64,000 nucleotides of DNA from Candidatus Nomurabacteria bacterium (lineage in GTDB: Bacteria > Patescibacteriota > Patescibacteriia > HK-STAS-PATE-3): the NCBI GenBank assembly GCA_023898465.1, contig CP060223.1, forward strand, positions 480,001-544,000, written 5' to 3'. The notes beneath the pieces were generated by a model. That model searched no databases. It saw only the letters and a program-made list of their open reading frames with translations, and was not told the origin of the DNA. Every line of letters starts with the position of its first letter. Position 1 is the first letter of the stretch. The translations under genes and the position numbers were made by a program. Positions 2,021 to 61,161 of this stretch are shown here, in pieces.

Positions 2021-3367
2021 CTATCGCCCAATTCCTCGATAGTGCACGCCGGCCTTTTGCAAAGCAGACTTATCAAGCGCATTTTTACCGTCGATGAGGA
2101 CTTTTACATGATATTTCTTCCAGAGCTTGTTTGGGATATCGAGAAATGCCTGATGGTTTGTCACCAGAATCACTGCGTCTACCTTTGATAATAGAGCCTC
2201 TAGGCTCTCCACTGTGGATTTTTGTGGTACATGAGGGTCATACACCTCTACTTGCGCGCCAAGCTCTCTAAGACGCTCCTGAATGCGAAATGAGGGACTC
2301 TCGCGCACATCATCGATGTTGGCCTTATACGCTACCCCTAATATGCCTACTTTCGTACCCTTCACAGGCAGAGCAACTTGATTTAGTGCCTCTATGAGCT
2401 GCTTTACGGTATACTCTGGCATTCCATTATTAATCTCCCTCGCTAGCTTAAGGAACTTATGATCAAAGCCAATCTGCCTTGCTCGCTCAATGAGATAATA
2501 TGGATCAACGGGTATACAATGACCTCCAACGCCGCATGAAGGATAATGCGCTAAAAAGGCAAAAGGCTTTGTCTGAGCACCTTCAATAACATCTAAAATA
2601 TCAATGCCCAATTTGCTAAATGATTGTGCCATCTCATTCACAAAGGCAATATTAATATCGCGAAAAGAATTTTCCATTATCTTTGTCGCTTCCGCGGCCT
2701 TGAGAGATTCCATTGGCCGGATTGGCGCATCAATAATACTCTCATACAGCCGGATTGCCTTTGCTCTACCTTTTTTGGTATACGCGCCAATTACCCTGGG
2801 AATCGTTCGCACATTCCATTTTGCATTACCCGGATCAATTCGTTCAGGGCAATGCGCTAAGGTAAAATCTTTACCAGCATGAAGCCCAGATGTTTCTAAC
2901 ACGGGAAGGAGAACTTCTTCGCAAGTTCCAGGATTAATGGTGGACTCAATAATAATCAATTGTCCTTTGTGAAGATGCTTCGCAATTTTTTTACATGCAT
3001 CGATTACTGGACCATAATCAGGATTGTATGCGTGGTCAACTGGTGTAGGTACGCAAACAATTATAGCTTTTGCCTTTTTCACTACACTAAAATCAGTTGT
3101 AGCTAAGAAAGGATTCTTTTTTAAATTTTTACGGACTCGCACATCATCAATCGGAGATACACCAGCGCTGATCATTTCTGCTTTTTTTTGACTTCGAACG
3201 ACTCCCAGGACCTTATATCCCTTTTCAACAGCTAAGCATGCAAGTGGAAGACCAACATAACCCAATCCAACAACGGCTAAAGCCCCTTTCCTAGTTTTTT
3301 GTGAACGAATAGCACGCTTTTTACTTCGCATACTTTTGCTGCTTGAAAAACCAAGAGACTGTTTCAT
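2021..3367 (-). CDS. nucleotide-sugar 6-dehydrogenase (UDP-glucose/GDP-mannose dehydrogenase family, WecC/WbpA/TviB-like)
   Basis: Rossmann motif VVGLGYVGLPLA and catalytic-Cys motif GGHCIPVDP, the form I associate with UDP-N-acetylhexosamine dehydrogenases rather than Ugd. The basic N-terminal 30 aa may be an over-extension. Overlaps the upstream gene end. Confidence 0.85.
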   Translation of the reverse strand: MKQSLGFSSSKSMRSKKRAIRSQKTRKGALAVVGLGYVGLPLACLAVEKGYKVLGVVRSQKKAEMISAGVSPIDDVRVRKNLKKNPFLATTDFSVVKKAKAIIVCVPTPVDHAYNPDYGPVIDACKKIAKHLHKGQLIIIESTINPGTCEEVLLPVLETSGLHAGKDFTLAHCPERIDPGNAKWNVRTIPRVIGAYTKKGRAKAIRLYESIIDAPIRPMESLKAAEATKIMENSFRDINIAFVNEMAQSFSKLGIDILDVIEGAQTKPFAFLAHYPSCGVGGHCIPVDPYYLIERARQIGFDHKFLKLAREINNGMPEYTVKQLIEALNQVALPVKGTKVGILGVAYKANIDDVRESPSFRIQERLRELGAQVEVYDPHVPQKSTVESLEALLSKVDAVILVTNHQAFLDIPNKLWKKYHVKVLIDGKNALDKSALQKAGVHYRGIGR

Positions 3368-4256: not shown

Positions 4257-5428
4257 AGGTATTTTTTGGCCGCCGATCGGAATTTAGCAGCTAAGGAGAG
4301 TTGCTCCCAACTAAAGCTTGCTTCTTTACGACCGAAGTGTCCATACGCTGCGGTTGGTCGATAAATAGGCCTACGTAAATTAAGGTGTTGGATAATACCA
4401 CCAGGAGTCAAATCCGCCACCTGGCGAACGATCTTTTCTAATTTACCATCGCTAATGACACCTGTGCCTTTTGTGTCGATAAGCACGCTGATAGGTTCAG
4501 CAACGCCAATGACGTAGGCGAGCTGTATTTCGCACTTCTTGGCAAGCTTTGCGCCGACAATATTTTTGGCAACATGTCTAGCCATGTATGAAGCTGATCG
4601 GTCAACCTTGGAAGGATCTTTACCAGAGAATGCTCCACCACCATGGCTACCGTGTCCTCCATAGGTATCGACAATAATTTTTCGTCCGGTCAAGCCTGCA
4701 TCAGCTGGAGGTCCACCCTTCACAAACTTTCCTGTCGCATTAATGAAGTGACGTGTTTTATTATCCATCCAGCGTCCTGCTATTGGTCGGATGACGTGCT
4801 TCATGACATCGCGCTCGACTTTTTTCTCGCTTACTTTTTCATTATGCTGCGTAGCAATAACAACAGTGTTTAAACGCTTTGCTTTACCATTTTCGTATTC
4901 GATCGCTACCTCAGTTTTACCATCCGGCCCTAAATAAGGCATTATTCCTTTCTTTCGCACGTATGCTAAGCGACGAGAAAGTTTATGAGACAGAATAATC
5001 GGCAATGGCATTAACTCAGGTGTTTCATCAGTGGCATAACCAAACATGAGTCCCTGATCACCTGCTCCTTGCTTTTTATACTTACCCTTACCCTCATCTA
5101 CACCCTGCGCAATATCAGCGCTCTGCTCATCAATTGCGACGATCACGCCGCAGTCCTGCCAATGAAATCCCATATTTGGATCAGTGTAGCCAATATCCCG
5201 AATAGTCTCTCGAGCTATTTTTGCAATATCAACATATCCCTTTGTCCTTATCTCTCCTGCAACAACAATCAAGCCGGTAGTTGCCATGGTTTCGACACCT
5301 GCGCGACTATGGGGATCCTGTCGTAATAATTCGTCAAGTATTGCGTCTGATATTTGATCGCACACCTTATCAGGGTGGCCTTCGGTTACTGACTCTGAAG
5401 TAAAGACATGATGTCGATTCGTTGACAT
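4253..5428 (-). CDS. metK: S-adenosylmethionine synthetase
   Basis: Full-length match to MetK hallmarks: [53 protein letters not shown]. Confidence 0.95.
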
Positions 5429-5447
5429 GCTCCTAGTTCCTTAATTA

Positions 5448-6473
5448 TTACTGGTCTTTTGAAATACTAGCTGAAATATCAATATTTTTTGCGCCTTTAA
5501 AGTAATCAATGGTCCGGCGTAAGCCTTCTGATAAGGCCACTACTGGAAACCAGCCTAAGCGCTCTTTTGCCAAAGCTATATTAGGCACGCCCTGTATAAC
5601 TGTTGACTTAGTGTGTTCGGTAAAACGAGATCCTGATGTACTGCCCGTAAGTTCTTGAATGTACTTTACTACATCCTCTAGGCGATGTTGATCAGGACTA
5701 CCCAGATTAACTGGCCCTAACTCGCTTGATTTCATGAGTCGCAGTAAGCCCTCCACAATATCGCTGATGTAACAAAGAGTCGTGGTATCATCTGCTTTAC
5801 CGTATACCGTAATAGTTTCGTTACGCAACGCCGCATTAATCATTTCCGGCACCATTCTACCATCGTCTACGCGCAAGCGAGGACCATAGGTGTTAAAGAG
5901 TCGGGCGATTTTTGCCTTTAATGCGTATTTTTCTCGGTAGTGCACGGTTAAGCTTTCGGCAAAGCGCTTACCCTCACTAAAGGCCGATCGCGACCCAACC
6001 GGATTCACATAGCCCCAATATTCTTCTGGGTATGGAGTCCTTTCCATGGGTTCGCCATAAATGGCATCAGAAGAAGCCAAGAGAAAACTGGCTTGATATT
6101 TTTTCGCCATTTCAAGAGCATTCCGAGTTGCTTGAGCATTTGCTACCAGTGTTTCAACTGGCATCTGTAGATAATCCTTTGGTGAAGTCGGAGAGGCGAA
6201 ATGATAAATTTCCTGCACTCCTTGGAACTCCACTTGAAAAGGTTTAAGACCTGGCTCGTGATCAAGATCTATCGGATCAGACAAATCATGCTTCACAAAC
6301 TCAAAATTTGGATTTTGGAGAAGATGATTTATGTTTTCTTCTCGACCAGTTGAAAAATTGTCTAAACAAATAACCTTGTGTTGCTTCACCAGCTCATCAC
6401 AAAGATGAGATCCAATGAATCCTGCTCCACCTGTTACTAATATGTTTTTTCTTTCAAAAATGGGTCTGCTCAT
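5448..6473 (-). CDS. UDP-glucuronate (or UDP-GlcNAcA) decarboxylase-like extended SDR (UXS family)
   Basis: [18 protein letters not shown] followed by CLDNFSTGREENI, then a YSEGKR-type (YxxxK) motif. 341 aa, typical UXS length. Confidence 0.8.
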   Translation of the reverse strand: MSRPIFERKNILVTGGAGFIGSHLCDELVKQHKVICLDNFSTGREENINHLLQNPNFEFVKHDLSDPIDLDHEPGLKPFQVEFQGVQEIYHFASPTSPKDYLQMPVETLVANAQATRNALEMAKKYQASFLLASSDAIYGEPMERTPYPEEYWGYVNPVGSRSAFSEGKRFAESLTVHYREKYALKAKIARLFNTYGPRLRVDDGRMVPEMINAALRNETITVYGKADDTTTLCYISDIVEGLLRLMKSSELGPVNLGSPDQHRLEDVVKYIQELTGSTSGSRFTEHTKSTVIQGVPNIALAKERLGWFPVVALSEGLRRTIDYFKGAKNIDISASISKDQ

Positions 6474-26147: not shown

Positions 26148-26834
26148 ATGAAAATACTACTCATCGAAGACAACCCAGAAATCCGTGAGTTTCTCAAGCC
26201 GGCTTTAGAAGCGGAGGCTTTTTCAGTTGATATTGCTGAGAATGGTAACATTGGTGCAAAAATGTCATGGGATCACACCTATGACTTGATTATTTTGGAC
26301 TACATGCTGCCGGATAAAAATGGCTGGGAAGTATGCCAAGAAATAAGAAATCGTGGAAATAAGGTACCTATTCTCGCACTTTCGGTGGTAAATGATACCG
26401 AAAAGAAAGTAGAATTTCTCAACTCAGGCGCTGATGACTATCTCACGAAACCTTTTTCCTTTAATGAATTATTAGCCAGAATTAGGGCACTTTTGCGTCG
26501 ACCCGATACTTTTGTGCACAATACACTGGCCGTTGGTGACCTTGAAATGGATCTCATTCAGCAAACAGTACGATGTGGGGGCCAAGAAGTATATCTAACT
26601 CGCAAAGAGTTTGAATTATTGGAGTATTTAATGCGAAACCCAGATCGTCCTTTATCCCGAGGAATGATTATTGAGCATGTCTGGGATATGGCAATTAATA
26701 CTTTTTCAAACACAATAGAAACGCATATTTTCAATTTGCGTCGGAAGCTCAATGAAAAAGCTTCGCGACAAATAATCGAAACACTCCCGGGTCGAGGTTA
26801 TAAAATAAGTTCAGTTTCCAAAATCACTTCTTAA
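26148..26834 (+). CDS. OmpR/PhoB-family response regulator
   Basis: REC domain (DLIILDYMLPDKNG) plus winged-helix (LTRKEFELLEYLMRNP...VWD...TIETHIFNLRRKL). Confidence 0.9.
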   Translation: MKILLIEDNPEIREFLKPALEAEAFSVDIAENGNIGAKMSWDHTYDLIILDYMLPDKNGWEVCQEIRNRGNKVPILALSVVNDTEKKVEFLNSGADDYLTKPFSFNELLARIRALLRRPDTFVHNTLAVGDLEMDLIQQTVRCGGQEVYLTRKEFELLEYLMRNPDRPLSRGMIIEHVWDMAINTFSNTIETHIFNLRRKLNEKASRQIIETLPGRGYKISSVSKITS

Positions 26835-37880: not shown

Positions 37881-37969
37881 ATGGGTAAGTATAGCATAGA
37901 AAAAATAGCTTACTCAGTATGAGTAGATTTTAATAGGCATTAAAAGGATTTTCGCTGTAAAATATCTCT

Positions 37970-38446
37970 TTACTGCCCTTGCTCGAAATCCTTCAGGATA
38001 CGCAAGTATTTTGCTTGAGTATCACTACCAATTTGTGGATGCGTAAAAACCGGCATTACACCGGTTATTGCTATGATATTTCTTACTTCATCAAAATAGA
38101 ATCCATCCAACGTTGCAATAAAGAGCCAAGAAGGATTCCAAGACTTAGCCATCCGTTTAGCATCTATAAGCACATATTCAGGACTTAGTTGTTTTTGATA
38201 TTTTACCTCTATCAATCTGACTTCGCTTGTTGCATGATCAATGACAGCGAAATCTGGCGCGGTACGTAAAATATTAACTGTTGGATTATCTTGTGAATAA
38301 CCCTGCTGGATAAGCTCAGGGATAATTTTTTCATACCCAAATTCGAGTACTGTAAATTGGCGTGATTCGCGAAACATTTGTGCAAATATCGTTTCAGCAA
38401 TTTTACCTTTAATGAGATTGTGAGTGAATTCTGTTGAGGTAGACAT
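37970..38446 (-). CDS. PD-(D/E)XK nuclease-fold protein (Hjc/endonuclease-like)
   Basis: GKIAETIF (E) ... APDFAVID (D) ... RLIEVKY (E-x-K) in the canonical order and spacing. 158 aa. Confidence 0.5.
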   Translation of the reverse strand: MSTSTEFTHNLIKGKIAETIFAQMFRESRQFTVLEFGYEKIIPELIQQGYSQDNPTVNILRTAPDFAVIDHATSEVRLIEVKYQKQLSPEYVLIDAKRMAKSWNPSWLFIATLDGFYFDEVRNIIAITGVMPVFTHPQIGSDTQAKYLRILKDFEQGQ

Positions 38447-38598
38447 TATTTTTTCTTAATAAACTTTTTCAACTTTACTTGAATGTAGGTTGCCGCAATA
38501 GTAAACAGAAGTATTATTCCAAAAGCAGGAAGAAATACTTTCAGCATTATTCCCATAAACCTACTTGTACCTTCAACAAGCTGAGGATCGGCAGGCAT
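38446..38598 (-). CDS. small membrane protein (50 aa; below the track cutoff)
   Basis: The ATG abuts the upstream stop (TAAATG) and its stop overlaps the next ATG (TAATG). One TM helix (VFLPAFGIILLFTIAATYI) and a Lys-rich tail. Confidence 0.4.
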   Translation of the reverse strand: MPADPQLVEGTSRFMGIMLKVFLPAFGIILLFTIAATYIQVKLKKFIKKK

Positions 38599-38784
38599 TT
38601 ATCTTGTTTTCTTCTTATAGCAGCTATAACAAAGCGAACGATCGCGGGAAATAACTGTACCACAACTCCGGCACTTTTTCGTGCCATACTTTTTTACACT
38701 CGAAGACTTTTTCTTAGTCTGGCATGAGTAGCACAGTGTATACGTTCCTGTTGTTTTTGTTCCACAGCGGCTGCATTTAGGCAT
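38599..38784 (-). CDS. double zinc-ribbon small protein (61 aa)
   Basis: I place the start at MPKCSRCG. Two CxxC...CxxC units (CSRC..CYSC; CRSC..CYSC), very basic. Confidence 0.5.
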   Translation of the reverse strand: MPKCSRCGTKTTGTYTLCYSCQTKKKSSSVKKYGTKKCRSCGTVISRDRSLCYSCYKKKTR

Positions 38785-38789
38785 ACTTA

Positions 38790-38966
38790 CTACGCCCCCA
38801 AAAACTTCAGCGCCTCGTAGACAAAGAAAACGGGCCAGATAATCGCTTTTAACAAACCGAGTACGCCAATCCAAAATGAAGTCGCTACCGAGATATAGTA
38901 GATAGCGGCACCGATCAGACCGAGACCATAGAAAGCCCCACTACTCCCTGCATTTGCCTTATTCAT
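38790..38966 (-). CDS. small membrane protein (58 aa; below the track cutoff)
   Basis: AAGGAG SD 5 nt upstream of the ATG. Two hydrophobic helices (FYGLGLIGAAIYYI; WIGVLGLLKAIIWPVFFV). Confidence 0.45.
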   Translation of the reverse strand: MNKANAGSSGAFYGLGLIGAAIYYISVATSFWIGVLGLLKAIIWPVFFVYEALKFLGA

Positions 38967-39000
38967 ATAACTCCTTAACTAATTATGTTTACAGGACAAA

Positions 39001-39258
39001 TTATACCACTTCGCGACGAACATAAAATAGACAACAAAGGGATACAGTCGCCGGAAACAAATATACCAAATCAAACCACCCTATTTGATCAGTGATAGTC
39101 AAAAAAATATTCAACAACATGAGTAGAGCAAGCATCCAGTAGGCCCACTTCTTTTTCAATCGTAATTGCCAAGTAAGTAAGAAGAGCGCAAAAGCATTTA
39201 CTAACGCAAAGCTAGAATAAAAGAAGCGGTAATCTGAGTCGCGAAATAACCAAAACAA
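39001..39258 (-). CDS. small membrane protein (85 aa)
   Basis: 3 hydrophobic helices. Start uncertain. Confidence 0.45.
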   Translation of the reverse strand: MFWLFRDSDYRFFYSSFALVNAFALFLLTWQLRLKKKWAYWMLALLMLLNIFLTITDQIGWFDLVYLFPATVSLCCLFYVRREVV

Positions 39259-40034: not shown

Positions 40035-41186
40035 CTAATTATCTATTTCAAAATCCCAGAGTGCTTGTACCTGCGACGCGCTTAGGCCGGTGCGTGTCGC
40101 AATCTCTTGAGCCAAACTTGAGGTGCTGGTATTTGCAGAGGTCCACTCATAGCGCTGTGTATCACCACGGCGGGCTTTAATTTCTGTGCCATCTTCACGT
40201 ACCCGGACTTCTATTTCCCATTGGGCTTCTTCTTCATCGCCGTGATCCTCTGAATCGTTTGAATTACTATTACTGTTATGTGAATTGGTATCATCATTCA
40301 CATTTCCTTCATGAGAGTTGGTTGCATCTACATGCGTATTCTTATTATCATTTCCATGATCATCATTGGTGTCAGAATGGTCATCACTGCTATTGGCATT
40401 TTGCAGATCTACACCATCATACTCAATTTTGATAGCTGCCCGAACTTGGGCTTCGCTTAAGCCTAAACGGTCGGTAACTGCTTTAATAATTTCTTCACGA
40501 TCAGTCGTAGTCAGGGTAAACTCACTGTGCTGATTTGCTACTTCAGCCTGAACAAAGGCTTGTGCACCAGCTACGTGCACTTCAATTTCAATTCGCTGAA
40601 GACTATGACTGTTTTGTGCGTCTTCAATCTCACGCAGTTTTACTTCAACGTTACTTAGCGTCGCTGCAGCATGCTCATTTTCTTTGGCTTCTAATTCATC
40701 GCGCACTTCAGCTACGGTTTGTTGCGCATTTTGCAGAGCGGAATTTACATGATCAGCAGCATCTCGAGCTAGTTGCTCCTTTTGCTCTTGCTCTAACTCA
40801 GCTAGCTCTTTTGCTCGCTCAGCTGCAATCTCAGCCTGGATGCGGAGTCGCGCCTCAGCTGAGGTGGCTAAATTTAAACGGACTTGCTCGACGGCTTGAT
40901 CAATACCAAAGAGCCAATCTCCTGGCTTGGCATTATTCGCTGCGAGGACAGTGCCGGTGCCGCTGCCTAATAACACGATAGCGATAAGGATGCTTGCAAT
41001 CATATTTTTGTGATTAAGGAAAAAACCTGATCGCTGCTTATATCGATCAGCTTCCGGGACTGTTACGCTCGATGCAGCCATACGCAAACGAGCCTCAATA
41101 CGTTCACGGGCAGCCGGAGATAAAGACTGAGAATGAGACATCTTTAACAGCTTGATAATTTCTTTTGATGAAAAATGTTTCGACAT
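40035..41186 (-). CDS. anti-sigma-factor-like membrane protein (DUF5667-like): cytoplasmic head, TM helix, coiled coil, His/Asp/Asn-rich region
   Basis: Lies immediately downstream of the ECF sigma gene. One TM helix (ASILIAIVLLGSG). Two similar ...GLS(E/A)(A/S)QV... modules. Confidence 0.55.
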   Translation of the reverse strand: MSKHFSSKEIIKLLKMSHSQSLSPAARERIEARLRMAASSVTVPEADRYKQRSGFFLNHKNMIASILIAIVLLGSGTGTVLAANNAKPGDWLFGIDQAVEQVRLNLATSAEARLRIQAEIAAERAKELAELEQEQKEQLARDAADHVNSALQNAQQTVAEVRDELEAKENEHAAATLSNVEVKLREIEDAQNSHSLQRIEIEVHVAGAQAFVQAEVANQHSEFTLTTTDREEIIKAVTDRLGLSEAQVRAAIKIEYDGVDLQNANSSDDHSDTNDDHGNDNKNTHVDATNSHEGNVNDDTNSHNSNSNSNDSEDHGDEEEAQWEIEVRVREDGTEIKARRGDTQRYEWTSANTSTSSLAQEIATRTGLSASQVQALWDFEIDN

Positions 41187-41190
41187 ATAT

Positions 41191-41736
41191 TTACGAATAA
41201 GAGAGTTGTTCCATTTCCTTGCGTAAGGCTTGCAAAGCCCTATGTTTCAATACGCGCACATTGAGAGCACTGATCTGCATTACTTTTGCCACTTCACTTA
41301 TACTTAGATCCTCTCGATAAAGCATATGGAGCAGAGTTGCGTAGCGTTCAGGAAGGCGGGTTAAGGCTGATTCCATTTCCCGCTCCATTATTACATCTGG
41401 CATCTCATCCGGATCACTTGATAAAGTATGACTCACGCTCTCAATATCAACCTGGGTGCGTTGGCCACGATAATGATCAATCAAGCGGAAACGGGCAATT
41501 TGAAAAAGCCAGGTAGAGAATTTTGCATGTTTCTGCTCCTTATATCGGGGCAATGAGCGAATCATTTCAAGAAAAACAGTTTGGGTTAAATCCTCAGCTG
41601 TTTCCTGACTACTGACCCGCATAAGCAAGAAACGGAACACCCGGTCTCCGAAAAGGTGGAAAAGTTCGGCCACCCCTTCTTGATCCCCTTGTTGCGCTCT
41701 GGCGACGATTTCCTGTACTTGGCTTTCGTGTTGCAT
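41191..41736 (-). CDS. ECF-type sigma-70 family RNA polymerase sigma factor
   Basis: Region 2 (DLTQTVFLEMIRSL..Y....KFSTWLFQIARFRLIDHYR) and region 4 (ISEVAKVMQISALNVRVLKHRAL). Confidence 0.9.
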   Translation of the reverse strand: MQHESQVQEIVARAQQGDQEGVAELFHLFGDRVFRFLLMRVSSQETAEDLTQTVFLEMIRSLPRYKEQKHAKFSTWLFQIARFRLIDHYRGQRTQVDIESVSHTLSSDPDEMPDVIMEREMESALTRLPERYATLLHMLYREDLSISEVAKVMQISALNVRVLKHRALQALRKEMEQLSYS

Positions 41737-41798
41737 AGCGTATATTAGTATATCGGAAATAGGATTATTTTGTTACATCTACCAAGAAATGCTATTAC

Positions 41799-41827
41799 TT
41801 GACATTTTTTCATATCTAGTCTAGTAT
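41799..41827 (+). promoter_or_regulatory. sigma70 promoter TTGACA-N17-TAGTAT
   Basis: Read directly. Points into an ORF-free GC-rich segment. Confidence 0.5.
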
Positions 41828-41833
41828 ATGCAC

Positions 41834-42191
41834 TCGATGTTCATTAGAAATGAGAGAGAGGCGGGATGAGATAGGTGTCCCCCCAGACACCTCGCTACCT
41901 TCATACAGCGGTAGTTGCATCATCCCACTGCCCGAAGCGGCTCCCCACCCTTGTTACTACTTGTACTGGCTTCATCCCTAAGGATCCCCCGCCAGTCTGG
42001 TGCTGACATGTTCGGCGTCATATCCTTATGGTCTATTGGCTGCAAAGCTGATCACCTTTTGTGATGATGACTCACCGATGCTTCGGCTCAGATGCCTCTC
42101 TCTCCACCTACGCCTGCGCACCTGAGCACTCCCCCAGGCTCACTGCGCATGTGCCCCCGTCGTGTCGTTGTACCGACGGGGGTGCTTTTTT
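41834..42191 (+). ncRNA. candidate large structured RNA (~360 nt), unknown class
   Basis: No ORF of 60 aa or more on either strand between 41737 and 42232. An 11-nt perfect long-range complement GAGAGAGAGGC (41852-62) / GCCTCTCTCTC (42094-104). Several internal hairpins. Terminator CCCCCGTCG-N11-CGACGGGGG + U6 at 42154-42191. Confidence 0.5.
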
Positions 42192-42232
42192 ATAAAAAGA
42201 AATCCCCAGGCCGATTGGTCTGGGGATGAGAA

Positions 42233-42679
42233 CTAGAACTGTTGTGCTGAACGCATCCGATGAAGCGTGCTACACACCAGTCCAATACCAGAGCGACGCT
42301 CTACACAGAACTGATACACCCGTTGCGCCGCCATGAGCTTTTCATAGAGCGCCTGACCATGCTTAGTGGCTAGTTCGTTTCGCATCTCCCGGTCTAGACC
42401 TTGGTAATACGAACCAAGCAGCAGATAGCGCACTAGAAGCCACCCCAGTAACCCGGAGCTGAGCAGCATCGCTGTTAAAGCACCGGGCAGAGTCAGATAC
42501 CCGAGCAAATCCTCCAGTCTTGCCCAGTAGTACACTGCAACAAGCTCAAATAGCAGAAACGCTAGCGTGGCTATAGTTGACCCTATCCGGATAAACAGGC
42601 GCCACCTTTTCACTCTCTCGCACAACTCTAGAATCTCTTCTTCTTGAACACTGAGTTGCGCGTAGAGGAAATTCGACAT
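42233..42679 (-). CDS. GC-rich two-TM membrane protein, unknown function
   Basis: I place the start at MSNFLYAQ, preceded by GGGAGGTG. Terminator CCCCAG-N10-CTGGGG + U-run downstream. 66 nt downstream of the heliorhodopsin stop. Confidence 0.5.
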   Translation of the reverse strand: MSNFLYAQLSVQEEEILELCERVKRWRLFIRIGSTIATLAFLLFELVAVYYWARLEDLLGYLTLPGALTAMLLSSGLLGWLLVRYLLLGSYYQGLDREMRNELATKHGQALYEKLMAAQRVYQFCVERRSGIGLVCSTLHRMRSAQQF

Positions 42680-42745
42680 ATGCACCTCCCTCTTGCATAC
42701 CCAAAAGCAGTCTACACCCGCTGCACTGCAGGTCAAGCATTCAGG

Positions 42746-43528
42746 TTAAGGCCGGAGAGTACCGGAAAACATTTGCCAGGCTAGAGCTGATTTCGCCACC
42801 AGGGACAAAATCATATAGGCCTTTTCACCGTAGAGATAGTCCTGCCATTTCCCTATCTTCTTATACTGCAGGACCATGTTAATCGCGAAGATGTTAAAGG
42901 TGACAAAGATGGTGGCCACAATGAAATAAACAAAGGTAGGAATCTCCACTCCGGTCGACTGTACCGCGCCAATGAAGAAAGCAACAATGACCAGCCAGGG
43001 AATTAAGCCAGCCAAAACTCCTATCCAGTACGAAAGCCAATTCGTATGCTTGGTCGTCTGATTATGTACTTCCATCATCAAGCCCATGAGATTCATAATC
43101 GCATTCAAGGCAAACAGCGAAATGAGTAGCCAAAGATCGTACACACCACAAAGCATGGCAATAACTACAATCATAACTGACGAGGATAAGGCATACTCAG
43201 CCCAACGCAGCTTGTTGATGCCCTTTTTCAAATTCTCCTCATACCATTCCCGCAAAGGTCCGGCTAGAAGGAAATGCGCAAAAGCAGAAAGGAAGAGAAA
43301 GACCGCTACGGTGGGGCCTAAGCGTAAGTCAAACAAATGCTCAGGAAGTGGAGCTACACCAAAAACTGGATTATTTGGATCGATTTTCAGGTATGAAGTA
43401 ACAACTGGTAAAGATGAATTATTGCTTATCAAAACCATAATGACGCCTTGCACGAAGTGAAGGGCGGCCATTGACCAATTCCAGACTTGTAGTTTTTTTA
43501 ACTGCTCTTTTTGACTACGCATTTTCAT
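42746..43528 (-). CDS. heliorhodopsin
   Basis: 260 aa, 7 TM. RWAEYALSSSVMIVVIAMLCG and GEKAYMILSLVAKSALAWQMFSGTLRP closely match my recollection of heliorhodopsin 48C12 (RWVEYSLSSSVMIVLIAQICG; GERAYIVLSLVAKSALAWQIFSGTLIPA). This includes the Schiff-base Lys and the counterion Glu. Confidence 0.85.
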   Translation of the reverse strand: MKMRSQKEQLKKLQVWNWSMAALHFVQGVIMVLISNNSSLPVVTSYLKIDPNNPVFGVAPLPEHLFDLRLGPTVAVFLFLSAFAHFLLAGPLREWYEENLKKGINKLRWAEYALSSSVMIVVIAMLCGVYDLWLLISLFALNAIMNLMGLMMEVHNQTTKHTNWLSYWIGVLAGLIPWLVIVAFFIGAVQSTGVEIPTFVYFIVATIFVTFNIFAINMVLQYKKIGKWQDYLYGEKAYMILSLVAKSALAWQMFSGTLRP

Positions 43529-43546
43529 ACCCCCCCCTTTTTTTCT

Positions 43547-43885: not shown

Positions 43886-43925
43886 ATACTAAAGTATATC
43901 ACTTGCCTCGGTCTTTGCGTAGTAC

Positions 43926-59718: not shown

Positions 59719-61161
59719 GTGGTGCAGAAGACTGCCACGGCTTGGGTCGTGGCATTCATTCTTCTGTTCTGCCACGCTCAAGCCTCGACTGCTACAGTCA
59801 CTCATTTCGTTTTTGGCATGCGCGGCAACGCGAATGTCGACGTGTGTGACAACGGCGACCTTCGCCAGTTTCACACCACGCCGGCAGGTGGACTCGTATT
59901 CACCAGTATGGGAGGTGGCGAATTCGAGATCGGTCTCGAGGGTCAAGTCAGCTGCAGTCGTGATGGAGGAGGTGGAGAAAACCTCATCCAAAACGGCGCT
60001 TTTGACCAGGGCACTTGCTCAGAATGGGAATTGGAGGACCCCAATGGACGCGCTGCAGCATCCTGTAGCAATGAGGGTCGCGTCACCGTGCAGAGTAGCG
60101 GACAATACTACGAAGTCCAGCTCAAGCAATCGATCCCGCTGATCAATGGTCAATGGTATCGTCTGAGCTTCGACGGCGACAGTAGCGTTCGCCACATCAT
60201 ACCGGTCGGAATTATCAATCCGGCCAGCTATGATTCGATCGGCCTCTGGGCTGATTGCGATCTGCACACCGATCGACGCAGCTTCGAATACCTTTTTCGC
60301 TCCAGTGAGACCATCTCTGATGCACGCTTCAGTTTCTACATTGGTGAACATCCGGCGACCTATCGTTTCGACAACGTAACGATAGTGCCGGTTGATCCCA
60401 GTGCAGACTGTTTCCGTGCTCCAGGTGAACTCATTGTGAACGGAGGGTTCGAGTGCGATCAGGTCTGCCAGCACGCTTGGCGATTCGAGGATCACTTTGG
60501 ACCCGGCTATGCTCTGTGCGATGCTGTGTCCCATAGTGGTGCTCACTCAGCCAAGCTACGACCAGCTCAAGCGGGTCAGTACTACGAAACGCAGTATCAG
60601 CAGCTTGTCACTGTCCAACAGGGACAACGCTATGAATTGCGTTTCTACGCCCGGACCAATCGTGACCCGCAGACTATTGTGGTCGAGCTGGTTGACCCAC
60701 AGAGCTTTGCGAACCGCGGACTCGTCTTTGGTCCCGTGCTCAACAGTAGCTGGACTGAGGTGCGACAAAGCTTCACTGCCAATCGTAGTGGTGTTGCTCG
60801 TCTCGGTTTTGCGGTTGGTAACTGGGACCCTGGTACTCCGGTCTGGATCGACGACGTCAGCTTGCGTCCGGTACTTAGCGTCGGAGGCGGTGACGCACAA
60901 AGCGCGACACCATCAGCCCTGGCCACCCAAGCGAACGCTGCAGTCTTTGCTCTAGAGCAACGAGCTGATGTTCGTATCAACGTCTTTGACGTGGGAGGAC
61001 GTCAAATTGCTGGCGAGTCTCGCTCCTTGTCTGCCGGGACTCATACCTACATCTGGGACGGATTGCTGCACAGCGGTGTCCGTGCTCCCAGCGGCATTTA
61101 CTTTGTCCAGGTCACCGGCGCTAGTGTCCATGCCATCAAACGCATTGTAATGGTGCGTTAG
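59719..61161 (+). CDS. secreted protein with two CBM4/9-like jelly-roll modules and a FlgD-Ig / T9SS type-A-like C-terminal domain
   Basis: Signal peptide. Duplicated NLIQNGAFDQG..EWE / ELIVNGGFECD...AWRFED openings with F.FY / LRFYAR and W(I)DDVS(L) endings. C-terminal RINVFDVGGRQI....LSAGTHTYIWDG......APSGIYFVQV........KRIVMVR. Confidence 0.65.
   Translation: MVQKTATAWVVAFILLFCHAQASTATVTHFVFGMRGNANVDVCDNGDLRQFHTTPAGGLVFTSMGGGEFEIGLEGQVSCSRDGGGGENLIQNGAFDQGTCSEWELEDPNGRAAASCSNEGRVTVQSSGQYYEVQLKQSIPLINGQWYRLSFDGDSSVRHIIPVGIINPASYDSIGLWADCDLHTDRRSFEYLFRSSETISDARFSFYIGEHPATYRFDNVTIVPVDPSADCFRAPGELIVNGGFECDQVCQHAWRFEDHFGPGYALCDAVSHSGAHSAKLRPAQAGQYYETQYQQLVTVQQGQRYELRFYARTNRDPQTIVVELVDPQSFANRGLVFGPVLNSSWTEVRQSFTANRSGVARLGFAVGNWDPGTPVWIDDVSLRPVLSVGGGDAQSATPSALATQANAAVFALEQRADVRINVFDVGGRQIAGESRSLSAGTHTYIWDGLLHSGVRAPSGIYFVQVTGASVHAIKRIVMVR

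Follow-up and report, generated by a model that had tools for sequence, protein, structure and literature searches.

A candidate structured noncoding RNA gene next to heliorhodopsin in Candidatus Nomurabacteria, with C-rich loops that may pair with G-rich ribosome-binding sites

The DNA analysed here is a 64-kb stretch from Candidatus Nomurabacteria (Patescibacteria, the candidate phyla radiation or CPR), called the window throughout; coordinates are window positions unless another locus is named, and L-numbers denote the other contigs and loci that were compared. Between a divergent sigma factor gene and a convergent operon carrying heliorhodopsin (HeR) lies a candidate RNA gene of about 360 nt, at 41832-42191 on the plus strand. 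We conclude from its sequence and from a diverged homologue on contig L006 that this locus is very probably a new structured noncoding RNA gene of a CPR bacterium, absent from Rfam. The conclusion is drawn from the promoter and terminator that frame it, the lack of a conserved peptide, the low folding z-scores of both copies, the slot kept between the same two genes and the compensated base pairs. All the sequence features that the original prediction lists stand where it places them, and its reading of the locus as an independently transcribed, structured noncoding RNA is supported. The signals that delimit the transcription unit and its surroundings are the following.

41799-41827, plus strand: sigma-70-type promoter, with the -35 element TTGACA at 41799-41804, a 17-nt spacer and the -10 element TAGTAT at 41822-41827.
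41832-41836, plus strand: probable transcription start region, an ACTCG block 5-9 nt past the -10 element that is identical in L006.
42151-42191, plus strand: intrinsic terminator of the RNA, a 12-pair stem (42151-42162 with 42174-42185, strands GUGCCCCCGUCG / CGACGGGGGUGC) followed by T6 at 42186-42191.
42195-42229, minus strand: the separate terminator of the heliorhodopsin operon, AUCCCCAGACC..GGCCUGGGGAU + UUUCUUUUU.
41750-41777, minus strand: promoter of extracytoplasmic function (ECF) type of the divergent sigma gene, outside the RNA and given for context, with TGTAAC at 41777-41772, a 16-nt spacer and CGATAT at 41755-41750.

The near-consensus promoter that the original prediction had placed at 41799-41827 was recovered by our promoter scan, in which TTGACA-17-TAGTAT matches the consensus at 10 of 12 positions and is the top promoter-like site of 41000-43000. 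The proposed terminator is also present, although the 9-bp GC stem described before its U6 tail is only the core of the 12-pair stem. As the convergent operon has a terminator of its own on the minus strand, the plus-strand hairpin is taken to end a transcript belonging to the RNA itself. No open reading frame (ORF) of 60 aa or more overlaps 41799-42191, as had been stated, and the longest is 49 aa. The local GC content of 68% was likewise reproduced (68.3% in 42121-42180), but the RNA as a whole is only moderately GC-rich, at 55.4% against 45.6% for the window, and the C-rich, G-poor composition of its unpaired positions described below is more telling.

The divergent upstream neighbours are the ECF sigma factor (41191-41736, minus strand) and a DUF5667 anti-sigma-like protein (40035-41186, minus strand). 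Downstream, in convergent orientation, come the last genes of an operon, encoding an MFS transporter, a membrane protein of 112 aa, heliorhodopsin (PF18761, E = 2e-98) and a membrane protein of 148 aa. The last of these genes in fact begins at the ATG at 42680, preceded by AGGGAGG, and a protein search returned no homologue of its product except itself. No plus-strand gene lies downstream of the RNA, hence it is neither a leader nor a riboswitch, in agreement with the earlier view that a cis-regulatory role is unlikely.

The RNA has a predicted minimum free energy (MFE) of -140.2 kcal/mol. Compared with 100 dinucleotide shuffles this corresponds to z = -6.4, and the reverse strand gives z = -5.0. 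Across the 64 kb, 23 control windows of equal length had a mean z of -0.63 and a minimum of -4.35, and the RNA candidate is the most extreme of all. The strongest-folding control, 60401-60759 on the plus strand (MFE -146 kcal/mol, z = -4.35), lies inside the gene of a carbohydrate-binding protein with two CBM_4_9 stretches and an FlgD_ig domain, and its fold is probably a domain-repeat effect and not an RNA element.

In the predicted structure a core is closed by the homopurine/homopyrimidine helix P1 and contains, in order, the P2/P2a domain, P3'/P3 and the arms P4 and P5; the external hairpin P6 and the terminator follow. The elements, all on the plus strand, are listed here.

41852-41862, plus strand: 5' strand of P1, GAGAGAGAGGC, which closes the core by pairing with 42094-42104 (GCCTCTCTCTC) in the MFE structure.
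41863-41926, plus strand: P2 domain, with P2 formed by GGGAUGA/UCAUCCC (41863-41869/41920-41926) and enclosing P2a and P2b.
41873-41892, plus strand: P2a hairpin with the loop CCCCCCA, its C6 at 41879-41884.
41894-41915, plus strand: P2b hairpin, specific to the window.
41928-41938, plus strand: 5' strands of P3' and P3, CUG (41928-41930) pairing with 42089-42091 and CCGAAGC (41932-41938) with 42080-42086.
41939-41951, plus strand: J3/4 junction, conserved, unpaired and C-rich, GGCUCCCCACCCU (in L006 GGUUUCCCCGCCCU), with an unpaired probability of 0.64-0.78 for the C runs.
41952-42008, plus strand: P4 arm, with basal UGUUA/UGACA, apical (AC)UGGC/GCCA(GU) and the conserved block CCCCGCCA.
42012-42078, plus strand: P5 arm, a long irregular hairpin with the base UCGG/CCGA, the apical part AUUGGCU-GCAA-AGCUGAU and the conserved 3' block CUGAUC.
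42080-42104, plus strand: 3' strands of P3, P3' and P1, namely GCUUCGG (42080-42086), CAG (42089-42091) and GCCUCUCUCUC (42094-42104).
42115-42149, plus strand: P6 hairpin outside the core, UGCGCA..UGAGC..loop CUCCCCCAG..GCUCA..UGCGCA, with C5 at 42131-42135.

The 11-nt long-range pairing of 41852-62 with 42094-104, noticed by eye in the original prediction, is thus part of the MFE structure, and so are the nested hairpins GGTGTC/GACACC, ACTGGC/GCCAGT with its inner ATCC/GGAT, and GCGCA/TGCGC. A further hairpin of that prediction, ATCAC/GTGAT, appears only as an alternative local pairing within P5, where the detail of the mid-arm pairing is uncertain. In P4 the run CCCCC at 41986-41990 is unpaired with a probability of 1.00, and the inner hairpin AUCC/GGAT is specific to the window. 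We also considered a triple helix between the homopurine P1 and J3/4, which was rejected on inspection as J3/4 does not fit the required CU register.

The RNA could not be assigned to any known family, as had been anticipated. At the gathering score, Rfam 15 (4227 models) gave only one tRNA in the whole window, and this lies elsewhere. With relaxed filters and E<=10, the region 41700-42300 produced five chance matches of 11-20 bits, four of them on the two terminator hairpins, and L006 2050-2560 produced two microRNA-precursor chance matches, on the terminator; the weak terminator-like alignments also display the heliorhodopsin-operon hairpin at 42195-42229 (minus strand). As a positive control, the same scan detects tmRNA (in L005) and several tRNAs in related loci. 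ARAGORN found no tRNA or tmRNA in 41000-43000 or in L006. There was no match at E<=10 to RNase P RNA (RF00010/RF00011), and on inspection no P4-type blocks (GGAAAGUCC / ACAGAA) were seen; tmRNA (RF00023) and the signal recognition particle (SRP) RNA gave no Rfam match, and neither a T-arm nor an SRP domain-IV motif was found by eye. No model match was obtained for 6S (RF00013) or Ms1, and the predicted conserved fold has a branched core and not a single hairpin with a bubble. Further, 6C (RF01066), RoxS/RsaE, OLE, GOLLD, ROOL, HEARO and raiA gave no covariance-model match at E<=10 in either RNA.

These searches bear on whether the gene could be a highly diverged housekeeping RNA (RNase P, 6S, tmRNA or SRP) that the Rfam models miss in this CPR lineage. 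Its size would fit RNase P RNA or tmRNA, the strong promoter looks constitutive, and CPR genomes are noted for atypical RNA components. Against this stand the lack of any model match at E<=10 under relaxed filters in either RNA, the empty ARAGORN search, the hallmark motifs not seen and a branched core unlike the 6S hairpin; in addition, a covariance model built from both sequences finds nothing in about 140 kb of related loci, which are small parts of their genomes. We hold such an identity to be exceedingly improbable.

A search of 5.8 billion proteins with the sigma protein as query gave P0003 on L006 (Logan SRR32105342, 3360 nt), which is 76% identical, whereas every other sigma homologue is at most 58% identical. 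The layout of L006 is heliorhodopsin, a 462-nt gap and the sigma gene, and the RNA homologue lies in the gap on the strand opposite both genes. A promoter, TTGACC-17-TAGTAT, is found at the equivalent position and is followed by the same ACTCG block. Seven blocks occur in the same order in both RNAs, namely GAGAGAGGC, CCCGAAG, CCCC(A/G)CCCU, CCCCGCCA, CUGAUC, CUUCGGC and CCUCUCUC. At its 3' end the L006 RNA has a GC-rich hairpin, which is separated from the stop codon of HeR by 12-20 nt. Folded by itself, the L006 RNA has z = -9.5; the expected excess of folding over dinucleotide shuffles was seen in both copies.

When folded independently, the MFE structures of the window RNA and the L006 RNA share P1, P2/P2a, P3'/P3, J3/4, P4 (UGGC-loop-GCCA), P5 (AUUrGmU/AkCUGAU), P6 and the terminator. 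P1 is kept in L006 with two pairs at its outer end changed on both sides, while CCGAAG/CUUCGG of P3 and the apical UGGC/GCCA of P4 are invariant. Lineage-specific parts are P2b and the P4-loop insert in the window and an extension at the tip of P5 in L006; the P6 hairpin of L006 stands in the same place with a different sequence and without a C run. Over the aligned columns the RNA is about 50% identical, compared with 71% for the sigma gene and 75% for HeR at the DNA level, which argues for selection on structure or pairing and not on sequence. Two further Logan contigs, L007 and L008, belong to the window's own strain (99.9% identity), have no single-nucleotide polymorphism (SNP) in the RNA and are uninformative at such a distance.

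As MAFFT misaligned the middle of the RNA, the two sequences were aligned by hand, helix by helix, with N in place of gaps. Over the 62 shared pairs, standard pairing is seen in 96.8% of the cells; both sides are changed in 21 pairs and one side in three, and four pairs are open in one sequence. The compensated pairs are spread over the outer end of P1 (2), P2 (6 of 7), P2a (3 of 7), P3' (3 of 3), the base of P4 (3 of 5) and P5 (4, in helices 8 and 9). When the 3' partners were slid by 1-3 columns, pairing fell to 36-46% with 0-5 double changes, and none of 500 shuffles reached the observed values. RNAalifold, run unconstrained on the same alignment, returned essentially the same structure with 23 compensated pairs. 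Covariation, one of the checks proposed at the outset, is thus found in 21-23 pairs. Five cells are G-U, which would be A-C mismatches on the opposite strand, and none of the four unpaired cells is A-C or C-A; the structure hence reads better on the plus strand, in agreement with the promoter and the terminator. It should be noted that the covariation comes from one pairwise comparison, as there are two independent sequences plus same-strain copies, and that the alignment was fitted by hand to both MFE structures, which weighs against our interpretation; each helix was nevertheless predicted independently in each of the two sequences.

The noncoding nature of the RNA also stood up to comparison. 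Six-frame translations of the window RNA showed no colinear similarity to those of L006, the best BLASTP match having E = 0.09 between non-corresponding segments. A decaying gene remnant, a small-protein gene or a well-folding spacer would agree with the very narrow distribution and with the small ORFs, at most 49-50 aa long, that several frames contain. Such a non-functional origin is made very improbable by the absence of a conserved frame or peptide between the homologues, by the promoter and terminator kept in both and by the 21 compensated pairs at about 50% identity, a signature of selection on structure, together with z-scores of about -6 and -9.5. By its sequence features the locus thus resembles a generic free-standing small RNA gene, with a predicted promoter, an intrinsic terminator, no apparent coding potential and a conserved predicted structure.

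The same comparison bears on an action in cis, either by convergent transcription into the 3' end of the HeR operon (interference, or antisense by read-through) or by a divergent promoter modulating the ECF sigma promoter some 50 bp away. The slot between HeR and the sigma gene is kept in both lineages, and the 3' hairpin of the L006 RNA, so near the HeR stop codon, could terminate both strands. In the window, however, the RNA and the operon each have a strong terminator and do not overlap, and the 148-aa gene separates the RNA from HeR, which is not the case in L006. Moreover, interference needs no fold kept by compensatory changes, and the RNA promoter and the ECF-type promoter of the sigma gene do not overlap. 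We consider an action in cis improbable.

To find further relatives we used nhmmer with the RNA against five GTDB Patescibacteria loci carrying sigma homologues (40-57% identity), with no match. Two covariance models of the core (P3' to P3') were searched unfiltered, R1 being based on the window copy only and R2 on both RNAs minus the lineage-specific inserts. Their sole matches are the window, L008 and L006 (88 bits with R2), and there was none in the other loci of about 140 kb, which comprise sigma neighbourhoods (L001-L005, L031 and L032) and HeR neighbourhoods of 74-85% identity (L009-L011 and L028-L030). One of the latter, the short contig L030 with an 80% identical HeR, has too small a flank to judge the presence of the RNA. 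The RNA is missing from the other HeR and sigma neighbourhoods, hence it is not generally linked to HeR or to the sigma pair. In the Patescibacteria MAG GCA_040960375.1 an 83% identical HeR (L010) and a 58% identical sigma/DUF5667 pair (L031) are on different contigs, with no RNA near either. BLASTN in distant mode against phage genomes gave no match to the RNA. The family so far has two distinct members in one narrow clade, and part of this narrowness may come from sparse sampling, as the next sigma relative is already at 58%.

The adjacency of HeR and the sigma gene is specific to the RNA-bearing clade. HeR identity does not track sigma identity, which from the sequences suggests lateral transfer of HeR among CPR lineages.

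Three candidate relatives were set aside. The DNA pattern CCCGAAG..CCCCRCCCT..CCCCGCCA, searched over JGI metagenomes, gave 16 matches, all of them chance hits on contigs of 57-74% GC without the other motifs; the pattern is too strict for distant homologues and too C-rich for specificity. A match to a CCGAAG...CUUCGG descriptor at L001 4735-4946 is not homologous and consists of G-rich repeats beside a tRNA. A 12-nt identity, CCCCGCCAACUG, in a hairpin 5' of the L003 sigma homologue is probably due to chance, as its structural context differs, R2 does not match it and about 0.5 such identities are expected by chance.

What sets the two RNAs apart is the composition of their loops. The unpaired bases number 51 C, 47 U, 24 A and 11 G in the window RNA and 51 C, 28 U, 38 A and 10 G in the L006 RNA, so that unpaired positions are about 38-40% C and 8% G in both. 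The unpaired C runs are C6, C4+C3, C5 and C5 in the window (unpaired probability 0.64-1.0) and C4, C6 and C4 in L006. The plus strand of the 64 kb has 20 runs of at least five C, and four of them fall within these 360 nt, against an expectation of about 0.1; one of the four belongs to the paired stem of the terminator. Conservation of both place and sequence is seen at two C-rich sites, the J3/4 junction CCCCrCCCU and the P4 loop CCCCGCCA. Other C runs are lineage-specific, that is C6 in the P2a loop and C5 in the P6 loop of the window, and C6 in the P4 internal loop of L006.

A possible partner for these runs is found at the neighbouring heliorhodopsin gene.

43530-43537, minus strand: candidate target, the G8 of the HeR ribosome-binding site, 7 nt before the ATG at 43522 chosen by gene callers; the link to the RNA is putative.

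No other transcript of the window carries a G run as long as this G8, and HeR lies 1.3 kb from the RNA. In L006 the HeR start is preceded by AAGGGGGUAAAAUG (G5), the only run of at least five G on that strand of the contig outside the RNA. A ribosome-binding site with a G run is absent from six HeR genes of lineages lacking the RNA. When 75 translation-initiation regions were ranked crudely by duplex energy, HeR came first of the 15 top-ranked ones for the sum over the four C-loops and sixth by its best single loop; some of the regions ahead of it belong to spurious ORFs. Whole-RNA RNAduplex runs against the HeR 5' regions gave only long-loop artefacts and were not used.

Some observations on translation starts may be added here. 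The HeR ribosome-binding site at 43530-43544 (minus strand) reads A7G8 in the window and A8G7 in the 99.9%-identical L007 (SNP at 43537, C>T on the plus strand); being the longest G run of the window and placed at a translation signal, it could tune expression. The HeR call at L006 1223-2098 (291 aa) is probably too long at its N terminus, as the alignment to the window protein starts at the ATG at 1313, which is preceded by the hairpin GCGTCTCCGGAGACGC and the G5 ribosome-binding site. Many genes look leaderless, with a -10-like element (TAGTAT, TATACT) about 10-15 nt from the start codon and no Shine-Dalgarno sequence, for example at 43886-43900, 37881-37900 and 41737-41750 (all minus strand). 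Strong G-rich ribosome-binding sites are seen in a few genes only, namely HeR, the 148-aa gene and the genes at 26148 and 20578.

On this basis we suggest, tentatively and as the likeliest mode of action, that the RNA is a C-loop riboregulator with heliorhodopsin as a candidate target, which we find plausible and yet somewhat doubtful. The strong housekeeping-type promoter would drive a predicted stand-alone RNA of about 360 nt that its own intrinsic terminator would end, and the folded scaffold would present several unpaired C runs. The RNA would then act in trans, its C runs pairing with G-rich Shine-Dalgarno regions and thereby controlling the translation or stability of a few mRNAs. The prime candidate among these would be the mRNA of the neighbouring HeR, with its G8 ribosome-binding site in the window and G5 in the homologue. 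The C-run/G-run pairing with HeR is a lead and not a demonstration. Going further, the RNA might be the founding member of a class of large multivalent C-loop riboregulators in CPR that clamp the poly-G site of HeR and a few other genes with G-rich Shine-Dalgarno sequences, in a module of HeR, ECF sigma factor and RNA, within a genome whose genes mostly look leaderless or devoid of a Shine-Dalgarno sequence; this extension we judge to be unlikely.

Several points weigh against pairing with mRNAs. Only two of the C-rich sites are positionally conserved, and the C runs of P2a and P6 are absent from L006. Complementarity between a C run and a G run is low in information, and no extended or co-varying duplex of RNA and mRNA was found. 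The two RNA-bearing lineages are related, so that the co-occurrence of the RNA with a G-run ribosome-binding site amounts to about one event. Further, the RNA exceeds known C-loop small RNAs 3-5 times in size and has a far more elaborate fold, which speaks for some other or added role, for example in binding protein or through a tertiary fold.

Two groups of characterised RNAs provide the precedent for C-loop pairing. In 6C RNA, C-rich loops bind G-rich sites of mRNAs, for which G-C pairs suffice and neither Hfq nor ProQ is needed (PMC6486639). Like 6C (RF01066; B11 in mycobacteria), the RNA described here appears to be a stand-alone gene with an intrinsic terminator and carries predicted unpaired C runs in hairpin loops. 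The 6C RNAs, in contrast, belong to Actinobacteria and consist of two or three simple hairpins within about 60-90 nt, while the present RNA is of about 360 nt, has a closed multi-helix core and is found in Patescibacteria. In RoxS/RsaE several C-rich regions target Shine-Dalgarno sequences without a chaperone (PMC4409812, PMC6158497). These Firmicutes RNAs share with the present one the several C-rich regions and the free-standing gene with its own promoter and terminator; they differ in being about 100-115 nt long, conserved across Firmicutes and under regulators responsive to redox or nitric oxide, whereas here the promoter seems constitutive and no site for a regulator was found. If our suggestion holds, the RNA would work like 6C or RoxS and yet stand outside those families, being about four times larger and more elaborate.

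The size and fold also fit a structured RNA with a job other than mRNA pairing, either a scaffold that binds or sequesters protein or an ornate tertiary or quaternary fold as in raiA, OLE, ROOL and GOLLD. The conserved C-rich single strands would in that case be elements of protein recognition or tertiary contact. Orphan structured RNAs without an assigned function are an established category, and raiA, OLE, ROOL, GOLLD and HEARO are likewise hundreds of nt long, with elaborate structures backed by covariation and functions that cannot be deduced from context (PMC5737381, PMC12286853, PMC12968392). They are independently transcribed, as the present RNA would be by its predicted promoter and terminator. 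They are also widespread, in hundreds to thousands of genomes, and all in Rfam, unlike the RNA here with its two lineages. C-rich, G-poor loops are not known to be a hallmark of these families.

In favour of a scaffold or tertiary fold are the length of about 330-360 nt, the multi-helix junction kept via 21-23 compensated pairs and the very low z-scores. The invariant J3/4, CCCCGCCA, CUGAUC and CCGAAG/CUUCGG also resemble functional cores more than simple seeds. On the other hand, apart from HeR and the sigma/anti-sigma pair there is no conserved adjacent gene for a partner protein, and that pair is widespread in Patescibacteria without the RNA. The very narrow distribution would be unusual for an RNA with a core cellular role, and the extreme C-rich, G-poor loops are readily explained by pairing with mRNAs. 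We regard a scaffold or tertiary fold as rather unlikely, ranking it only slightly below pairing with mRNAs, as the size and the branched core fit it equally well.

A likeness to 6S and Ms1 should be mentioned as well, as the present RNA would, like them, be an abundant-looking, sigma-70-driven and structured RNA of a few hundred nt, and the sigma gene next door invites the idea of RNA polymerase binding. The 6S and Ms1 RNAs, however, each form one long irregular hairpin whose central bubble imitates open promoter DNA, while the predicted core here is branched (P2, P4 and P5).

To our knowledge no regulatory RNA has been experimentally characterised in Patescibacteria, and most of our literature searches on the point turned up none; regulation is thought to be sparse in the minimal CPR genomes. 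A structured RNA of about 360 nt without an Rfam relative would add a new RNA family from a poorly known part of the tree, and its loop composition points to a mechanism in which C runs pair with a poly-G ribosome-binding site. Heliorhodopsin occurs widely as a light sensor, and a dedicated regulator beside it, flanked by an ECF sigma/anti-sigma pair, would give an experimental handle. Were the RNA to belong to the C-loop class, Patescibacteria would have their first characterised riboregulator and heliorhodopsins their first known regulator; were the RNA instead a protein-binding or tertiary one, it would join the few large orphan RNAs of bacteria from which new biochemistry has repeatedly come. 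Its distribution, two lineages so far, limits its general importance.

We also made some observations on the sigma gene and on other noncoding regions. The sequence TGTAAC-N16/17-CGATAT stands directly 5' of the sigma gene in three Patescibacteria lineages (window 41750-41777, minus strand; L006 about 2505-2535, plus strand; L004 about 5960-5990, plus strand), and the conservation of an ECF-type promoter at the sigma factor's own gene suggests autoregulation, as far as can be read from sequence. The leader of the sigma mRNA would be only about 10 nt, without a Shine-Dalgarno sequence. The 1.1-kb gap 5' of the L003 sigma homologue (48% identical) has, within 5215-5560 and 5590-5660 (both minus strand), a 39-aa basic ORF, a terminator-like hairpin whose loop CCACCCCCGCCAACUG has the probably fortuitous 12-nt identity to the P4 loop of L006, and an ORF-free region of about 340 nt with a moderate fold (z = -3.45) and no Rfam or ARAGORN match. 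At L001 4700-5092 (minus strand), beside a tRNA gene, the 3' end of the tRNA occurs a second time (GGATTCCCCTTGGGGCTACCA), and a GCGAAGGAATCGAAGGGTA unit with G-rich hairpins after it is present twice; the arrangement resembles a small repeated element or what an integration at the tRNA might leave behind. Finally, what seemed to be a 950-nt noncoding gap in the window under a 120-aa ORF cut-off (38446-39258, minus strand) holds four small ORFs of 50, 91, 58 and 85 aa, of which the 91-aa one has three CxxC pairs and three resemble membrane peptides.

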